64,000 nucleotides of DNA from Prochlorococcus sp. AG-409-G20 (GTDB taxonomy: Bacteria > Cyanobacteriota > Cyanobacteriia > PCC-6307 > Cyanobiaceae): NCBI GenBank assembly GCA_003215775.1, contig QCJW01000008.1:2833-66832 (forward strand), written 5' to 3'. Every line of letters begins with the position of its first letter. Position 1 is the stretch's first letter. A program made the position numbers and the translations under genes. A model generated the notes under the pieces. It was not told the origin of the DNA. It was given only the letters and a program-made list of their open reading frames with translations, and did no database searches. Positions 15,496 through 62,809 of the stretch are shown here, in pieces.

Positions 15496-18400
15496 ATGAG
15501 CCTGCTGCACGCCACTTGGCTTCCAGCCATTCGCACCCCTACCTCTTCTGGTCGCCCTGCTTTATTGCTATGGGCAGATACATGGCGAGTCGCAACCCCA
15601 ACAGGTCCAAAAGATACACCAGCAAGCCATCCATTTACACTCAACCAAGAAGATCTAAGAAAATGGCTCATTGCAAAAGATCTTTTACCTCAAGAAACTG
15701 TCACTGCGACAGCTTGCTTAACTTTACCTAGCAAAGAGATAAGACTAGACAGCAGATCTGCTCAAACAGTAAAAGATAACAACAATTCAACTGAATATGC
15801 TTGGACAGGCTTGCCTTTACAAGCAGGAGAACCAACACCAAAACACTGTGAATGGTGGCCTTGGCAAGTCGAAGGATTAGCAATAGAACCTGGTGAAGCA
15901 ACAAATTGGTTATCTAAACTTCCGTTATCTGAGCAAAATCAAGACCTTGGCAATGAACTTCTATGGTGGAGTCATCTTCAACGTTGGGCATTAAGCCTCA
16001 TTGCACGTGGACGATGGCTACCACAAGTTGAACTAAGCAAAGGAGAAGGCTACCCACACCGAGCCAGATGGCTTCCTCTACTCAATCGTGAAGATGATCG
16101 ACGCAGGTTAGAAGAATTCGCAAGCAAACTTCCACTAATCGCAACCTGTGCTTTGCCTTGGAGAGAGCCAATAGGAAGCAAAGCAAATCGTTCGCTCCGC
16201 ATGAGACCAGAAGCAATGAGAGCTGCTAATCCTGTGGCATCATGCAGACCTAGGAGTGGGCTACTTCGAGTCGCAACACTACTTGCAGATCTCGTAGATG
16301 CACAGCTAAGAAAAAACTTCAATCCAACTACTCAAAAGCTGGATCCATTGTTGACTGCTTGGCAGGAAGGACTCAGTTCACAAACTGGACTCATTACTCT
16401 TCCTAATAACGACGTTGAACGCCTTGCAAAAGCAAGTAATCACTGGAGAGAAGGAGTTGCAGGGAATGTTGCAGCAGCAAAAGCTTGCCTTGAATTATTT
16501 ATACCTGAAAAAGATGAAGAGCACTGGAATCTAGGTTTTAAATTACAGGCAGAAGCAGATCCAACACTCCAAATACCTGCTTCATCTGTGTGGGCAGCCG
16601 GGACAAAGACTCTTCAACTTGGCGAAATCCGAGTAGACAAGCCTGCCGAAATTCTATTAGAAGGAATGGGTCGAGCACTTGCAATATTTCAACCACTTGA
16701 AAGAGGACTGGAAGGTGCAACTCCAGAATTGATGCAACTAACACCTAACGAGGCATTTGTTTTAATCCGTACTGCTGCAGCTCAGCTCCGTAATATTGGC
16801 ATTGGTGTGATATTGCCACCAAGTCTTTCAGGAGGATTAGCTAGTCGTCTAGGCCTCTCAATAAAAGCAGAGTTATCAGACACATCTATAGGATTTGCAC
16901 TTGGTGAAAGTCTTACTTGGTCTTGGGAACTCATGATTGGAGGCATAACATTATCTCTGAAAGAACTAAAGCTTCTAACAGGCAAACAAAGCCCTTTAGT
17001 CCAATACAACGGTGAATGGCTTGAATTAAGACCTAACGATCTAAAGAATGCAGAGCGTTTCTGCAGTTCCAATTCAACGATCAGCTTAGATGATGCTCTG
17101 AGACTTACTGCAACAGAAGGCAATACATTCATGAAGCTTCCTGTTCATAACTTTGAAGCAGGCCCAAGACTTCAAAATGTTTTACAGCAATATCACAAAC
17201 TCAAAGTCCCAGATCCTTTACCTGCCCCACCAGGATTTATTGGACAATTAAGACCATATCAAGAAAAAGGCTTAGGATGGCTCGCCTTCTTGCATCGGTT
17301 TGATCAAGGTGCATGCTTAGCTGATGACATGGGATTAGGCAAAACAATCCAACTCCTTGCATTCCTTCAATACCTCAAAGCAGAACAAGAACTCAAAAGA
17401 CCAGTATTACTAATTGCGCCAACATCGGTATTAACTAATTGGAAGAGAGAAGCACTAACATTCACACCTGAATTAAATGTCTACGAGCACTATGGTCCTA
17501 AACGATCTTCCACCATATCTGATCTCAAGAAAAACATTAAAGAAGCCAATCTAGTTTTAACTAGTTATGGACTAATACAGCGAGATCTTGAAATCCTAAA
17601 CAATATTGACTGGCAAGGAATAGTGATTGATGAAGCACAAGCAATTAAAAACTCATATGCAAAGCAAAGCCAGGCAACTCGTCAACTAGCGAAATCATGG
17701 AAACATAAACGATTCAAAATAGCCCTCACTGGAACACCAATAGAAAATCGAGTAAGTGAGATCTGGGCACTTATGAACTTTCTGAATCCTAATGTTCTTG
17801 GAGAAGAAGACTTCTTTCGTCAAAGATATCGATTACCAATAGAACAATATGGAGATAATGCTTCCTTTAAAGATCTTAAGTCAAGAGTCAATCCATTCAT
17901 ATTAAGAAGATTAAAAACTGATAAGACAATAATCTCTGACCTGCCAGAAAAGATTGAACTAAGTGAATGGGTAGGTCTGAGTAAAGAACAACAATCACTT
18001 TATAAAAAAACTGTAGAAGAAAGCTTAGATGCAATAGCAACTAAATCATCTAGTCAACAACAAGGACAAGTTCTTGCTCTTTTAACCAGATTAAAACAAA
18101 TCTGTAATCATCCAGCCCTAGCACTCAAAGAAAAAACCTTAACCAATGAATTTATAAAGCGTTCGGCCAAACTAGAGCGACTCAATGAAATTCTCGAAGA
18201 AATTATAGAAAGTGGGGATAGAGCATTACTTTTCACACAATTTACAGAATGGGGTCATCTACTAAAAAGTTATTTGCAAAATAAATGGAAAACGGAAGTG
18301 CCTTTTTTACATGGAAGCACTAAAAAACAAGAGCGCCAGGCAATGATTGATCGATTTCAAGAAGACCCTCGCGGGCCTCATTTGTTCTTACTATCACTCA

Positions 18401-18693
18401 AAGCTGGCGGCGTAGGACTCAACCTCACTCGTGCTAGTCACGTATTTCATATAGATCGATGGTGGAATCCCGCAGTAGAAAATCAGGCGACAGATCGTGC
18501 CTACAGAATTGGACAAACAAAAAGAGTGATGGTTCACAAATTTATTACTAGCGGATCTGTTGAAGAAAAAATCGACAAAATGATTAGAGACAAGGCGCGA
18601 CTAGCAGAAGACATAATTGGTTCAGGAGAAAATTGGTTGACAAGCCTAGGGGTAGATCAGCTGCGTGAACTTGTGACCTTAGAAGAAAATTAA
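15496..18693 (+). CDS. SNF2-family ATPase/helicase with a long (about 570 aa) N-terminal accessory region
   Basis: 1065 aa. Motifs seen: LADDMGLGKT (motif I), VIDEAQAIKN (DEAQ box), LTGTPIENR, and LSLKAGGVGLNLT...DRWWNPAVENQATDRAYRIGQ (motifs V-VI). Confidence 0.9.
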   Translation: MSLLHATWLPAIRTPTSSGRPALLLWADTWRVATPTGPKDTPASHPFTLNQEDLRKWLIAKDLLPQETVTATACLTLPSKEIRLDSRSAQTVKDNNNSTEYAWTGLPLQAGEPTPKHCEWWPWQVEGLAIEPGEATNWLSKLPLSEQNQDLGNELLWWSHLQRWALSLIARGRWLPQVELSKGEGYPHRARWLPLLNREDDRRRLEEFASKLPLIATCALPWREPIGSKANRSLRMRPEAMRAANPVASCRPRSGLLRVATLLADLVDAQLRKNFNPTTQKLDPLLTAWQEGLSSQTGLITLPNNDVERLAKASNHWREGVAGNVAAAKACLELFIPEKDEEHWNLGFKLQAEADPTLQIPASSVWAAGTKTLQLGEIRVDKPAEILLEGMGRALAIFQPLERGLEGATPELMQLTPNEAFVLIRTAAAQLRNIGIGVILPPSLSGGLASRLGLSIKAELSDTSIGFALGESLTWSWELMIGGITLSLKELKLLTGKQSPLVQYNGEWLELRPNDLKNAERFCSSNSTISLDDALRLTATEGNTFMKLPVHNFEAGPRLQNVLQQYHKLKVPDPLPAPPGFIGQLRPYQEKGLGWLAFLHRFDQGACLADDMGLGKTIQLLAFLQYLKAEQELKRPVLLIAPTSVLTNWKREALTFTPELNVYEHYGPKRSSTISDLKKNIKEANLVLTSYGLIQRDLEILNNIDWQGIVIDEAQAIKNSYAKQSQATRQLAKSWKHKRFKIALTGTPIENRVSEIWALMNFLNPNVLGEEDFFRQRYRLPIEQYGDNASFKDLKSRVNPFILRRLKTDKTIISDLPEKIELSEWVGLSKEQQSLYKKTVEESLDAIATKSSSQQQGQVLALLTRLKQICNHPALALKEKTLTNEFIKRSAKLERLNEILEEIIESGDRALLFTQFTEWGHLLKSYLQNKWKTEVPFLHGSTKKQERQAMIDRFQEDPRGPHLFLLSLKAGGVGLNLTRASHVFHIDRWWNPAVENQATDRAYRIGQTKRVMVHKFITSGSVEEKIDKMIRDKARLAEDIIGSGENWLTSLGVDQLRELVTLEEN

Positions 18694-37071: not shown

Positions 37072-38688
37072 TTATAAGGATTTATACAACTTACTTTCAA
37101 CAATAAACTTAAAAAAGACCGACAATGAAGTTTCATAATCGAAAATATTTGCTCTGTCAAGTAATTGGGTGATATTTTTGGCTTTTTTAAAAACCAAAGA
37201 ATCTACAAGTTGATCGGCTAATCCCAATTGAAACCAATGACTAGTCAATTTTCCTTTCATACCTATTCGATGACAACGATCTTCAGCCTGTAGAACCTCA
37301 CCAGGAGTCCAAGGTCTTTCTAGCAAGATTACGTCTTTAGCTTTATGCAAAGTTAAACCCAATGAACCAACTCCAAAGGTTGTTAAAATTAATAAATTAT
37401 TACCATTCTGAAAATTTTGAATAGCATTTTCTCTCTCCTGAATAGTTTGCTTACCTGTAAGCATTAGTCCGCCCAAGTATTGTTGAAGAAGCTCTAAAGG
37501 GCGAATAAAGCTACTAAACAAAACAATAGAGTTACCTTTTTGCAATAAATTCGAAATAAATTTGCTGACATGAGGTAATTTAAATTCTGCTGAAATTTGG
37601 CGGAGTGCAGTTAATGTAATCAATGATTCTGCTTGTGAATCAACTATACCTTGTTTTACCCTTAATCGATAATGATCTAAAACCAATTCAAGACGATGAT
37701 TAAAACCTATCGATTCTTCTTGAGTTAACGAGATTGGATAAACCTTTCTTGTTTTAGGGGGAAGATTTAGAATTGTTTTCTTAGATCTTTGCAACATGTC
37801 AGCCTTAATCAAAGGTGCAAGTTTTTTGATCCCAGTGGATACATTGTTAATACCATTATTCTTACTGAACTTATAATCAGAAAATTCCTTATCAAATTGT
37901 CCCTTATTAGAGGTCACCGGATGATTAATCGCAAGCAAAAGAGGATAAAGCTGCTCTGGGCGGCCGTTTTTAACTGGAGTCCCTGTAATCAACCAAATTG
38001 CATGCAATCGTGGATGTCTTGACAGGCGCAGTAAGGATTTAGTTCTTATAGAATTAATTGACTGAGCAAAATGTGCCTCATCTACAAGTAAAAGAGTTCC
38101 AGCAGAAGATAGTTCCTTAGGTAATTTGGCCCAACTTCGCAAGTCAATTTCTAATCCAACAGCGTTTGCTTCATTACGCCAATGTGAATGCAAGCTGACT
38201 GGGGCAATCACCATTACTTGAATATTAATTGTTTTCACGATTGCCCTTGCTGCTAAAAGTACCGTTAGAGTTTTTCCCAATCCCATTTCATCTGCTAATA
38301 CAGCTCCTTTCTTAGTCAAAAGCCATTTTGCCCCTTCTTGCTGATGTGGAAAAGGTCTTCGTCCATCTAGCAAGACTCTCTCCAAATCAGCATTCCGAAG
38401 CAAAAGCTTCCTCTTAGGAGACTTTGGTAAAGGATTGTCTAATAAACGAATCCACCTAGATAAATCATCCTGAACTAAAAAACGTCCTCGAAACTCATGA
38501 AGAAGTTGCTTAGATGAAGAAAGAGGAAATTTCCAACCATTGTCTTTCCCATACCATTGACCTTTAGGAGAAATCTTACTCAGCTTCGAATGAGTAACTG
38601 CATCAAATGGAAAGACTGCTTTTATCAAGCCATCGGATGTAAGACCGAAATAACAGGTTTCTGAAAACTCTGAGGAAGAACAACTCAT
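37072..38688 (-). CDS. SNF2-family ATPase with a HARP-like N-terminal domain (SMARCAL1-like architecture)
   Basis: 538 aa. Motifs seen: LADEMGLGKT (motif I), LLVDEAHFAQS (DEAH), ITGTPVKNG, and a C-terminal LGLTLHKAKDVILLERPWTPGEVLQAEDRCHRIGM. The N-terminal roughly 90 aa (IKAVFPFDAVTHSKLSKISPKGQWYGKDNGWKFPLSSSKQLLHEF) resemble the HARP pattern. Confidence 0.85.
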   Translation of the reverse strand: MSCSSSEFSETCYFGLTSDGLIKAVFPFDAVTHSKLSKISPKGQWYGKDNGWKFPLSSSKQLLHEFRGRFLVQDDLSRWIRLLDNPLPKSPKRKLLLRNADLERVLLDGRRPFPHQQEGAKWLLTKKGAVLADEMGLGKTLTVLLAARAIVKTINIQVMVIAPVSLHSHWRNEANAVGLEIDLRSWAKLPKELSSAGTLLLVDEAHFAQSINSIRTKSLLRLSRHPRLHAIWLITGTPVKNGRPEQLYPLLLAINHPVTSNKGQFDKEFSDYKFSKNNGINNVSTGIKKLAPLIKADMLQRSKKTILNLPPKTRKVYPISLTQEESIGFNHRLELVLDHYRLRVKQGIVDSQAESLITLTALRQISAEFKLPHVSKFISNLLQKGNSIVLFSSFIRPLELLQQYLGGLMLTGKQTIQERENAIQNFQNGNNLLILTTFGVGSLGLTLHKAKDVILLERPWTPGEVLQAEDRCHRIGMKGKLTSHWFQLGLADQLVDSLVFKKAKNITQLLDRANIFDYETSLSVFFKFIVESKLYKSL

Positions 38689-38829
38689 AGCTAAATTCTA
38701 AAGTCGTTAAAGAGCACCTAATGAGAAAGTCAAAAACCTATAAAACAATTACAAATATAAAAAGTGCATATCAGGGGACATTGACTAGCTAATAACTCAC
38801 GGCAAACTATCGATAACCGATGCACATGC

Positions 38830-39240
38830 ATGCTGGCAAGGGACGCGGTTTTCCTAGAAGATCTCTGCCCAAAATCACGCGTAAGGCGATGGAGACAATC
38901 ACTTCATACTTTTACTGGGCAAAGCTGTATCTATTGCGGGAAACCTTCGGAATCAATCGATCATGTCCTACCAAGAAGTAGAGGAGGTATGAGTATTACA
39001 GAAAACTGTGTTCCTGCTTGTCTTGCATGTAATGGACATAAGTCAAATACAGACGCTTTTGATTGGTATAGACGTCAAAAATTTTACGACCCAAGAAGAG
39101 CAATGGCTTTAAGAGCCTGGACAGAGGGAGATTTACGCCTAGCCTTAAAACTTTTGGAATGGGCCAAACCTAATCAAATTGAACATCAAAAAAATTCCAA
39201 AAGAAAGATTGAGCAAGACTGGTCATTACAAGCTGCATAA
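38830..39240 (+). CDS. HNH endonuclease
   Basis: 136 aa. CIYCGKPSESIDHVLPRSRGGMSITENCVPACLACNGHKSN is an HNH motif with flanking Cys pairs. Confidence 0.85.
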   Translation: MLARDAVFLEDLCPKSRVRRWRQSLHTFTGQSCIYCGKPSESIDHVLPRSRGGMSITENCVPACLACNGHKSNTDAFDWYRRQKFYDPRRAMALRAWTEGDLRLALKLLEWAKPNQIEHQKNSKRKIEQDWSLQAA

Positions 39241-39246
39241 GCTTTA

Positions 39247-39480
39247 TCAAAACACTTGGCAAGCAACTGCTGGATTATGTCTTTCACAAATTGAGGCGAG
39301 TTCATTTGGCCTCTCTGGAGCAATAAAGGCTATACAGCTGAGCCCTATAACTCCTATAAAAAAGAACAGACTTAAAGAATTTTGGTGCTGATCAATCTTT
39401 GAAGACCTTTCTTCTGGCAACATGACTAAGGACAAATGACTTGTCGAGCGCAGACAAGAACTAGACATAACAGAAAACAT
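39247..39480 (-). CDS. Possible small membrane protein
   Basis: 77-aa ORF with one hydrophobic helix (LSLFFFIGVIGLSCIAFIA). No other support. Confidence 0.2.
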   Translation of the reverse strand: MFSVMSSSCLRSTSHLSLVMLPEERSSKIDQHQNSLSLFFFIGVIGLSCIAFIAPERPNELASICERHNPAVACQVF

Positions 39481-55203: not shown

Positions 55204-56583
55204 TTAAGAAGCGAGAGCTTCTCTCCAATAATTTAATTGCTCCTTAACCCTGCTAAAGCCAGTACCACCTTCACTAATTCGTGAGGCCACAACTTGTTTT
55301 GGGGATAATCTGTCAAAAAGATCTCTACCAATCAAAGGGTTTATCTCCTGCCATTCATGAATCTTGAGATCTCTCAATAAAATTCCGTCATCAAGACATC
55401 GCTTCACAACTCCTCCCACAATTTGATATGCCTCACGAAAGGCTATTCCTTTAGAAACCAAATAGTCAGCTACATCAGTTGCATTAGAAAAATCAGATTC
55501 AACTGCAGCAGAAAGTCTAGAAGTACGAAATTCTAATCCCTCTTCAAGCAAAATTGACATTGCTTCAAGAGAAATTCTTACAGTTCTAACAGTATCAAAT
55601 AGTGCTTCTTTATCTTCCTGAAAATCTTTATTATATGCAAGAGGTAATCCCTTAATCATTGTAAGCAAAGCCTGAAGATGACCAAACACACGACCACATT
55701 TACCCCTTACCAATTCAGGAACATCCGGATTCTTTTTTTGAGGCATAAGACTACTACCCGTAGCACATCTATCGGTTAATTGAACAAAAGAAAACTCTTC
55801 CGATGCCCACAAAATCACTTCCTCAGATAAACGACTTAAATGAGTCATGATCAGAGAAGAAGCACTAGCAAACTCGACAGCAAAATCTCGATCACTAACC
55901 GCATCTAGACTATTATTATATATATCAGAAAAACCAAGTTTTGAAGCAGTCTTGCGAGGATTAATAGGAACAGATGTACCGGCCAATGCAGCAGCTCCTA
56001 ATGGTGAAATATTGACACGTTTTCTAACATCTAACAAACGCTCTCTATCTCTTTGAATCATCTCTATATAAGCCAAAAGATGATGAGCTAAGGACACTGG
56101 TTGTGCCCTTTGTAAATGTGTGTAGCCAGGAATAAGTGTATACAAATGACTGTTAGATTGATCAAAAAGTGCCTTTTGAAAACGCTTAAGGTCAATATCA
56201 AGCAAATCAATTTGACGCCTCAACCATAATCTCAAATCAGTACCAACCTGATCATTTCGACTACGACCTGTATGTAATTTTTTTCCAACAGGTCCAATGA
56301 GTTCAATCAAACGTCTTTCAACTGCATAATGGACATCTTCATCTACAAGATTTTGTTGAAAAAATCCTTGATCTGCTTCTAAACGAATCTTTTCGAGAGC
56401 CTCGTCAATCTGAGCAGCTTCTTTAGTGGAAATAATGCCACAATCCGCAAGCATTGCCACATGAGCTTTAGATCCATCCAAATCTTCCTGGATCAAATTG
56501 ATATCGAAGGTAATAGAAGCATTAAAGCTTTCTATAACAGGATTCAGGCCCTGCTCAAACCTATTGCTCCAAGTCTTAGCCAA
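55204..56583 (-). CDS. argH: Argininosuccinate lyase
   Basis: 459 aa. TGRSRNDQV and [12 protein letters not shown] signature motifs. TTG start. Confidence 0.95.
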
Positions 56584-61934: not shown

Positions 61935-62809
61935 AAAAAATCAATTATCTAATACCTTTTTTAATAAGCATTGGAGCAATATTACTTCCATTGCCAAGCA
62001 AAGCATTTATTCCTTATATATATGAACCTGAAGCAAAAAATCTAGAAAAGACAGGATTAAGTATTGCTAAATCAGCAGCCAAGTTACTACAAATAGGACA
62101 ACCAAAAGAAGCTGCTAGAATTGGATCTCTCGCAGTACGACTGAACCCAAAAGACTTCCGAATCTGGTTAATCTTGGCTGAGGCTCAAATAAAAAGTGAG
62201 AATATTGAACAAGCTAATCAATCGCTTGCTAAAGCAAAAAAATTAAATCCTAAAAATGCAGGAATTTGGTTTACCGAAGCTTCATTAGCACTTCAAGAAA
62301 AGAAAACCAAAACAGCGATAAAGCTTTTAGAAAAAGGTTTGTCCTTACAACCAGATAATGCGGGTGGATATTTTCAACTAGGAAATGCAAAAATTATCGA
62401 GGGAAAATTATATTTAGCGCTAGAAGATTTTAAAAAGTCTGTATCTTTAAAACCAAATTTCTGGGAAGCCCTTAACAATCAGGGGTTAATACTATTTGAA
62501 ATCAACCAGATTAAAAAAGCTATAAAAACTTGGCGAAAAGTTTTAGAAATACAAGTAAATGCAGAACCAATGCTTGCATTAGCATCAGCCCTTTACATCT
62601 CAAGTCCTGACAAGAAAGAAGCTATTCAATTAGCTATAGAAGCTTTAGAAAAAGATCCTAATTATGTTTCTTCAATTTATCAAAAAGAACAACTATGGGG
62701 AGACAAACTCATAAAGGCTAATAAACAACTGTTCAAAGAGGCTTCTCTAAAGCCTGCAATCGAAAAGGCAAAGTCAAATGCAACAGTAAAGCTGGTATCA
62801 AATAAATAA
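61931..62809 (+). CDS. TPR-repeat protein with a signal/anchor sequence
   Basis: 292 aa. Hydrophobic N-terminus and multiple 34-residue TPR-like repeats (W..LA.A......A...L.KA..L.P.N). ATGA overlap with the queG stop. Confidence 0.8.
   Translation: MKKINYLIPFLISIGAILLPLPSKAFIPYIYEPEAKNLEKTGLSIAKSAAKLLQIGQPKEAARIGSLAVRLNPKDFRIWLILAEAQIKSENIEQANQSLAKAKKLNPKNAGIWFTEASLALQEKKTKTAIKLLEKGLSLQPDNAGGYFQLGNAKIIEGKLYLALEDFKKSVSLKPNFWEALNNQGLILFEINQIKKAIKTWRKVLEIQVNAEPMLALASALYISSPDKKEAIQLAIEALEKDPNYVSSIYQKEQLWGDKLIKANKQLFKEASLKPAIEKAKSNATVKLVSNK

Follow-up and report, generated by a model that had tools for sequence, protein, structure and literature searches.

A compact SNF2 ATPase with a putative divergent HARP-like module and a divergently transcribed HNH gene in Prochlorococcus sp. 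AG-409-G20

The 64,000-nucleotide stretch of Prochlorococcus sp. AG-409-G20 analysed here (contig QCJW01000008.1, positions 2,833 to 66,832 of the forward strand; referred to as the window) carries a compact SNF2 ATPase gene and, divergently transcribed from it, a small HNH endonuclease gene. An initial annotation, made from the sequence alone, had described the pair as a 538-aa SNF2 protein and a 136-aa HNH protein 141 bp apart, and the coordinates of the open reading frames (ORFs) agreed with it exactly. The two genes, the spacer between them, and the features recognised in them are listed below; the promoter roles are putative.

37072 to 38688, minus strand: compact SNF2 ATPase gene, 538 aa (ORF list; Pfam SNF2-rel_dom and Helicase_C)
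37159 to 38361, minus strand: SNF2 motor core, residues ~110–510 (sequence, invariant columns, Pfam, and PDB sequence and fold matches)
38434 to 38652, minus strand: putative HARP-like module, residues ~13–85, beta-beta-alpha-beta-beta-alpha-beta-alpha (conservation, structural model, hhalign, and Foldseek)
38689 to 38829, no strand: divergent spacer, 141 bp, between the SNF2 and HNH ORFs
38695 to 38700, minus strand: −10-like TAGAAT, 6 nt upstream of the SNF2 ATG, a putative promoter element (spacer sequence and 12-spacer alignment)
38781 to 38808, plus strand: promoter-like element of the HNH gene, TTGACT (38781–38786), 16 nt, and CAAACT (38803–38808), putative (alignment)
38830 to 39240, plus strand: HNH endonuclease gene, 136 aa, zinc-finger, 4h9d type (ORF list; Pfam HNH and HNH_5; PDB match 4h9d)
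38926 to 39042, plus strand: HNH catalytic and zinc core, residues 33–71, with CxxC, DH, N, CxxCN, and K (alignment A5 and alignment to 4h9d)

The 538-aa protein was matched by the Pfam families SNF2-rel_dom (1.4e-26) and Helicase_C (1.1e-14), and its motor motifs are intact: ADEMGLGKT (131–140), DEAH (203–206), TGTP (235–238), and QAEDRCHRIG (467–476). The full-length model was predicted with a predicted local distance difference test score (pLDDT) of 84.4 and a predicted template modelling score (pTM) of 0.80. A Foldseek search with this model retrieved generic SNF2 motors and did not discriminate the subfamily; the motor resembles CSB/Rad26 and Mot1 as much as other remodellers.

The N-terminus of the SNF2 protein is a real domain. 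Residues ~13–95 were as conserved as the motor, both among 42 full-length SNF2 relatives (alignment A1) and among 21 orthologous loci restricted to the picocyanobacterial family (alignment A2). The pattern that the initial annotation had noticed in the ~90 N-terminal residues, quoting residues 22–66, is thus not due to chance. The invariant positions of the module include P27, D29, V31, T32, P41, G43, W45, W52, F54, and P55, and the module is marked by an invariant PFD, W45, and W52-x-F54-P55. AlphaFold2 run on A2 gave a pLDDT above 90 over residues ~11–80. Within the full-length model, the module and linker kept a pLDDT above 87, which suggests that the module holds a fixed position on the motor.

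Remote homology to HARP was detected by comparing family profiles. Alignment A4 is a HARP-only set consisting of the solved HARP domain 4o66 and HARP proteins that pass the Pfam model. When A2 was compared with A4 by hhalign, 52 columns were aligned with a score of 27.9 (probability 62%, P 7.5e-5); 600 column shuffles scored 9.8 ± 2.1 and 10.1 ± 2.3 with a maximum of 19.3, and none reached 27.9. The register was the expected one, with PFD aligned to PYH/GYN, W45 to Y/W, and W52-x-F54 to W-x-F/L, and the predicted beta-alpha-beta-beta-alpha order also aligns in register with the 4o66 sequence. Adding 25 SNF2-linked modules to A4 produced an enlarged HARP-like set of 40 sequences, none of them picocyanobacterial, against which A2 scored 41.0 (93.8%, P 1.8e-7; shuffles 10.7 ± 2.6, maximum 25.0). 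A hidden Markov model (HMM) of the 40-sequence set matched 9 of the 21 family members at E < 0.01, again in register. In a Foldseek search against predicted viral structures, the module matched at probabilities of 0.90–1.00, and those matches named as SMARCAL1-like or HepA-related reached 0.90–0.97. These included a 73-aa phage protein named 'SWI/SNF-related matrix-associated...' (TMt 0.61, root-mean-square deviation 3.5 Å, 67 columns) and the 'HepA-related protein' of Bacillus phage vB_BcoS-136. At the sequence level, no match to either the 4o66 HARP domain or the SNF2 N-terminus was found by tblastn in 50,697 phage records, no viral relative of the module was found in the viral-contig search, and PHROGs returned unnamed families only for the module set.

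An exhaustive search of 1.84 billion protein representatives with profile A2 retrieved only 40 proteins, and the picocyanobacterial module forms a tight sub-family of its own. In the outliers among the 40, the module precedes other SNF2 motors or an RNase H domain, or it is repeated in tandem. This HARP/DUF5710-like module was seen as three repeats before RNase H (P0156), as tandem repeats (P0154 and P0152), and after a DnaJ domain (L109). Both the DUF5710 and HARP models of Pfam match these modules weakly, which suggests that the two families overlap. In other Cyanobacteriota, proteins of ~180–200 aa with two modules pass the Pfam HARP cut-off at 26.4–32.5 bits, and their database relatives were already annotated with PF07443. 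In these tandem-HARP proteins (L103–L108, L111; P0160–P0166; families f35 and others), a charged helix joins the modules and no motor is present.

The nearest relatives of the motor outside the family were collected from a GTDB scan, giving 60 loci at 23–29% identity. At 25 of them, a HARP-like module recognised by the A4 HMM precedes the motor within a single ORF; these loci belong mainly to Solirubrobacterales, and the others include an Anaerolineaceae metagenome-assembled genome, L037, and L110. Three of the proteins (L028, L037, and L110) are as compact as the SNF2 protein of the window (~540 aa), and in many others 300–450 additional residues separate the module from the motor. Neither a free nor a fused HNH was found within ±6 kb of any of the 60 loci. 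Prokaryotic HARP-like SWI2/SNF2 ATPases (L027–L060, L037, and L110 in our set) belong to a class already described by comparative genomics (Iyer/Aravind; PMC3417536). According to that paper, the HARP-like SWI2/SNF2 ATPases of eukaryotes stem from late transfers out of prokaryotic SWI2/SNF2 radiations (PMC3417536). The picocyanobacterial family shares with them the module upstream of the motor and differs from many of them in lacking the long intervening segment, and from all of them in having an HNH neighbour; it is a new, unusually compact member of the class. The Pfam HARP model misses a whole layer of such bacterial SNF2-linked HARP-like modules. Taken at the level of the family, the N-terminal module is likely a divergent HARP-like module, and the proposal of a HARP-like N-terminus was borne out as family-level remote homology by the profile–profile comparison, the predicted fold, and the architecture of the relatives.

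The 136-aa protein was matched by Pfam HNH (1.3e-09) and HNH_5 (2.5e-09). Its cysteine-pair zinc ligands, already pointed out in the initial annotation, are part of a CxxC...DH...N...CxxCN layout (C33, C36, D44-H45, N59, C64, and C67-N68, numbered as in alignment A5), and 58 positions are invariant among the 23 orthologues of A5. The best PDB match was 4h9d (E 7.8e-7; 9.5e-9 with a profile), the HNH nicking endonuclease of Geobacter metallireducens, which has the same compact CxxC-DH-N-CxxCN core and has been reported to be a top structural neighbour of the HNH domain of ZRANB3 (PMC5481773). The ZRANB3 HNH itself was unmatched at E ≤ 10 by sequence or profile, and so was T4 endonuclease VII, to which this CxxC zinc-finger class is related, not among the matches. 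ZRANB3 HNH needs a helical insert for cleavage (PMC5481773); this ZRANB3-specific insert of ~40 residues is missing from the picocyanobacterial protein, in which just ~34 residues separate CxxC from CxxCN.

HNH relatives were numerous on viral contigs (95; IMG/VR loci L139–L217), with 34–49% identity over residues ~5–110, including the WYRxQxFYD motif, at the listed loci other than L138. At the examined viral loci, genes for dCTP deaminase, dNMP kinase, thymidylate synthase, and endolysin lie alongside, and no SNF2 or HARP ORF was near the HNH at any of the 80 retained loci. The picocyanobacterial HNH carries its own conserved N- and C-terminal extensions and looks like a domesticated phage endonuclease. 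In contrast to 4h9d and the free-standing phage HNH endonucleases, its gene is inherited vertically as a strongly conserved part of the core genome and is not a sporadic mobile one. A second, more divergent HNH paralogue (55–60% identity) occurs in the streamlined genus g18 (G017:C3:16154-16483, G072:C1:916364-916693, G101:C1:194356-194685, G372, G437, G499, and others). Several of these copies contain in-frame TAA stops and are therefore probably decaying.

The pair is flanked by genes for CbiD, an aminotransferase, an epimerase, PdxA, AccB, and Efp, together with several small conserved ORFs. The GC content of the locus is unremarkable for the window, and no island features were seen. The order efp-accB-pdxA-epimerase-HNH-SNF2-o130-...-aminotransferase-cbiD is syntenic across the picocyanobacterial family over ~10 kb. 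HNH was divergently upstream of SNF2 in 20 of the 21 orthologous loci, the remaining locus having no upstream DNA. Of 121 genomes of the family, 110 had an HNH match (E ≤ 1e-10; 107 with a high-scoring orthologue), and 89 had the SNF2 module. HNH was adjacent and divergent in all 89 SNF2-bearing genomes, with a median gap of 174 bp between the matched segments; 18 genomes had HNH only and none had SNF2 only. Laboratory strains of Synechococcus such as WH7803 and WH8102 possess both genes. In a survey of the phylum, HNH was present in 29/29 genomes of the family and in 0/371 elsewhere, and the SNF2 module was present in 16/29 of the family and essentially none elsewhere. The expectation that the two genes would be syntenic in related genomes thus held without exception (89/89), but it does not discriminate between readings because the whole block is syntenic.

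In the 18 HNH-only genomes, many of which are complete, the sole SNF2 match was a protein of ~1070 aa. The window likewise encodes a larger SNF2 protein (a 1065-aa ORF at 15496–18693), the first of the two that the initial annotation implied by calling the 538-aa protein the second. In the complete HNH-only genomes, the interval from HNH to o130 lacks precisely the small SNF2 gene. A phylogeny built from six flanking proteins (1,799 columns) grouped the 12 HNH-only genomes that were sampled into a single clade with a support of 98, sister to the genome of the window. SNF2 was lost once in this streamlined clade, and HNH was long retained thereafter, with an identity to the window copy of 66–78% in HNH-only genomes vs 69–83% elsewhere. 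Instead of the strict co-occurrence or fusion expected of a ZRANB3-like nuclease, the SNF2 and HNH genes are separate, and 18 genomes have HNH alone. A few nearly complete family genomes (G007, G067, and G096 of genus g8, G024, and G049) have neither an HNH orthologue nor the small SNF2, and the pair can therefore apparently also be lost together.

Conservation in the spacer was assessed in an alignment of 12 spacers, and the position of TTGAC was followed in 31 genomes (the window and loci L081–L085, L118–L137, L001, L003, L012, L017, and L020). Conservation was found at the two ends of the spacer only, and the middle was not conserved. At the HNH end, TTGAC at exactly −49 from the HNH ATG was invariant in 31/31 genomes, including 12 that have HNH only, and it is followed after 16–17 nt by hexamers of the CAAACT/CAAAAT/CAGAAT type (nAnAnT). 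For the gene of an HNH protein of just 136 aa, a putative promoter conserved to this degree is unusual. At the SNF2 end, the conserved element in relatives is TAGAAT/TAAAT (ATTTAC on the plus strand); since the −10-like TAGAAT lies 6 nt from the SNF2 ATG, the SNF2 transcript may have little or no leader. A simple sigma-70 scan had returned no site in the spacer, and the alignment later showed the conserved TTGAC/CAAACT with a weak −10. A search for inverted repeats across the spacer and 60 nt to either side of it found none whose arms reach 6.

The initial annotation had also envisaged one shared bidirectional promoter and had suggested a search for LexA/SOS operators between 38689 and 38829. 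No LexA box was found there with either the cyanobacterial consensus or the motif derived from the genome; in the spacer plus 60 nt on each side, the best candidate had three mismatches to the genome-derived recA and lexA boxes. The SOS boxes of the genome are GGTACGCTTGTACT for recA (G000:C7, ~190 nt into the 400 nt upstream of recA at 62070) and GGTACAAATGTATT for lexA (G000:C2, upstream of lexA at 84160). The single match to the cyanobacterial LexA consensus in the window (GGTACATCTGTTCC, 55967–55980, minus strand) lies inside an ORF far from the SNF2/HNH locus and is compatible with chance. The shared promoter was not borne out either, as two separate conserved end elements without a shared central element were found. 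With conservation at the two ends only, SNF2 and HNH thus appear to have separate back-to-back promoter-like elements and no common operator.

The SNF2 protein was compared with the annealing helicase SMARCAL1/HARP, including the single-HARP Drosophila Marcal1. In both, a HARP-type module sits at the N-terminal border of the SNF2 motor; in the window protein, the module is at ~13–85 and motor motif I at 131–140, in agreement with the HARP position rule (PMC4035279), and the W-x-F signature of the module aligns with the TWDF of 4o66. It has been reported that a single HARP domain bordering the SNF2 domain on its N-terminal side suffices for annealing-helicase activity, that one HARP domain plus the ATPase is the minimal catalytic layout, and that HARP domains confer this activity on other SNF2 motors (PMC4035279). 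The SNF2 protein of the window has exactly this minimal layout. It differs from SMARCAL1 in that its module is too divergent for Pfam HARP and in that a 538-aa protein has no room for an RPA-binding N-terminus. Just ~12 poorly conserved residues precede the module, and no RPA-interaction motif was found there; this motif is dispensable for activity in vitro (PMC4035279). As the protein is bacterial, any single-strand-binding partner would be the single-stranded DNA-binding protein SSB.

Given the family profile match, the fold match, and the modules of its relatives, the 538-aa protein is probably a divergent minimal HARP-plus-SNF2 protein acting as a structure-specific DNA translocase. A short conserved linker would fuse one HARP-like module to an intact SNF2 translocase on double-stranded DNA. 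By analogy with HARP and SMARCAL1, the module would most likely recognise branched DNA or single-strand/double-strand junctions and guide the motor to them for rewinding or branch migration, as an annealing helicase or in remodelling forks or bubbles. The combinations in which the module occurs, with RNase H, with DnaJ, and in stand-alone tandem pairs, fit a role in binding nucleic-acid structures, and from them we infer a junction-directed translocase on double-stranded DNA. SNF2 would be an accessory genome-maintenance gene of picocyanobacteria, lost in the streamlined clade sister to the genome of the window. HNH would be a separate gene of equal, family-specific age that encodes a 4h9d-type zinc-finger nickase under its own promoter-like element, with phage HNH endonucleases as the closest relatives beyond the family. 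Its function would not depend on SNF2; the two proteins may cooperate where both are present, and nothing that we found requires them to. Taken as a whole, a minimal counterpart of the SMARCAL1 core serving as an accessory genome-maintenance gene, next to a separate and SNF2-independent HNH, is the reading that we favour, by a modest measure of confidence.

Several results weigh against this reading. Pfam PF07443 (HARP; gathering score 25 bits, which the SNF2 N-terminus fails) had no match to the SNF2 protein at E ≤ 1, matched nothing in the genome translated in all six frames (E ≤ 10), and matched 0/21 of the family N-termini at E ≤ 10. HARP-only HMMs failed to retrieve the SNF2 gene from the 11,735 ORFs of the genome, and the window's own module is among the most divergent copies of the family (E = 6 against the 40-sequence HMM). 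On ten SNF2-linked modules of other phyla, Pfam HARP matched 2/10, below threshold at 16–17 bits; the chain to canonical HARP therefore runs via the tandem-pair intermediates, which reach the Pfam cut-off only as pairs. Foldseek of the module against solved structures returned nothing significant (best E = 1.0), with 4o66 absent among the 50 rows listed and a few low-probability XPB/Ssl2 chains seen. The motor shows no special likeness to SMARCAL1 or ZRANB3: its top PDB matches by sequence and fold were SMARCAD1, INO80, ISWI, and Chd1. The matches listed included neither a SMARCAL1 nor a ZRANB3 motor, in a set that offered neither of them for comparison. Against full independence of HNH count the same narrow phyletic range of both genes, with constant adjacency when both exist, and the fact that the SNF2 loss was a single event. 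Searches of the N-terminus against PDB sequences with phmmer and with profiles gave chance-level matches only (PH-domain DUF1696 and Mbp1).

ZRANB3 (AH2) joins a SNF2 motor, a HARP-like substrate-recognition domain, and a C-terminal HNH. The initial annotation had proposed that the two genes may form a split, two-component analogue. In such a machine, the motor would find and remodel a stalled fork and position or activate HNH nicking, with both genes co-regulated from the spacer. The same three kinds of parts do occur at one locus, and the HNH belongs to the CxxC zinc-finger class, its best solved relative 4h9d being a top structural neighbour of ZRANB3 HNH, as noted above (PMC5481773). SNF2 was never found without HNH at its side, and the restriction of both genes to one family is compatible with joint acquisition. 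However, the adjacency is to be expected in a block that is syntenic from efp to cbiD, and the parts are in two genes rather than one chain, with the recognition module at the N-terminus, as in SMARCAL1. Throughout the clade that lost SNF2, HNH has persisted, no less conserved than elsewhere and still preceded by this promoter-like element, and it is not linked to HARP-SNF2 in other lineages (60 loci) or to SNF2 on viral contigs (80 loci). The HNH also differs from that of ZRANB3 in its missing insert and its lack of a sequence match, and the spacer has two end elements and not a shared central one. The support for a partnership in a two-part SNF2-HNH enzyme is weak, and we regard the split machine as rather unlikely.

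It could also be imagined that picocyanobacteria acquired a two-gene cassette, consisting of a minimal SMARCAL1-type helicase and a domesticated phage-type nickase that cooperate in trans at stalled forks, as a split forerunner of ZRANB3. The nickase would later have gained or kept a second, SNF2-independent role, which would explain the survival of HNH in streamlined Prochlorococcus. We consider this distinctly unlikely.

The module might instead be an unrelated or convergent small alpha/beta domain, and the SNF2 protein might act, for example, in a transcription-coupled or RNA polymerase-associated role like that of RapA. The failure of every HARP HMM on the window sequence and of the solved-structure search would agree with this, as would a motor that looks like generic remodellers, CSB/Rad26, and Mot1 and is weakly matched by the RapA model. 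The RapA match, however, reached 17 bits vs a cut-off of 576 bits. A convergent domain would also have to account for a profile–profile score far beyond all shuffles over the full module in the expected register, for fold matches to HARP-named phage proteins, and for motor relatives that carry HARP-like modules at the same position. We judge this explanation quite improbable.

An anti-phage defence pair of a ZorD/DrmD/DpdE-like SNF2 helicase and a ZorE/PtuB-like HNH effector is very improbable and was rejected: the PADLOC models for ZorD, DpdE, and DrmD match the motor (best 7.9e-26), PDC-M01B and PtuB match the HNH core, and HNH relatives are frequent in phages, but the PADLOC and NCBIfam matches cover only the generic motor or HNH core at scores far below the curated cut-offs (ZorD 57.3 vs 1500 bits, DrmD 49.6 vs 950, and DpdE 30.8 vs 500), and the locus is fixed in a syntenic core block across the family with no ZorAB, methylase, or other partners nearby. 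The absence of adjacent defence partners had been stated correctly in the initial annotation, as only housekeeping or small conserved genes flank the pair. Its preference for repair or replication over phage defence also agrees with the core-genome context and the sub-threshold defence-model matches, and such a role looks more likely for the SNF2 protein.

Between the HNH and epimerase genes, a 77-aa ORF with a hydrophobic stretch (39247–39480, minus strand) was kept at 31–46% identity in 6 of the 8 related loci compared, and it is therefore probably a real gene for a small membrane protein.

Should the activity be confirmed, few natural HARP-plus-SNF2 enzymes would be as small as the 538-aa protein, which comes from some of the most abundant phototrophs on Earth. 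It would then provide a convenient minimal model of how a HARP module steers a SNF2 motor and a view of fork maintenance in picocyanobacteria. The HNH gene is of interest in itself, as a phage-type endonuclease that has become a fixed and strongly conserved part of the core genome, preceded by an invariant promoter-like element. With its single loss at the origin of the streamlined clade, SNF2 joins the genome-maintenance genes that Prochlorococcus shed during genome reduction.

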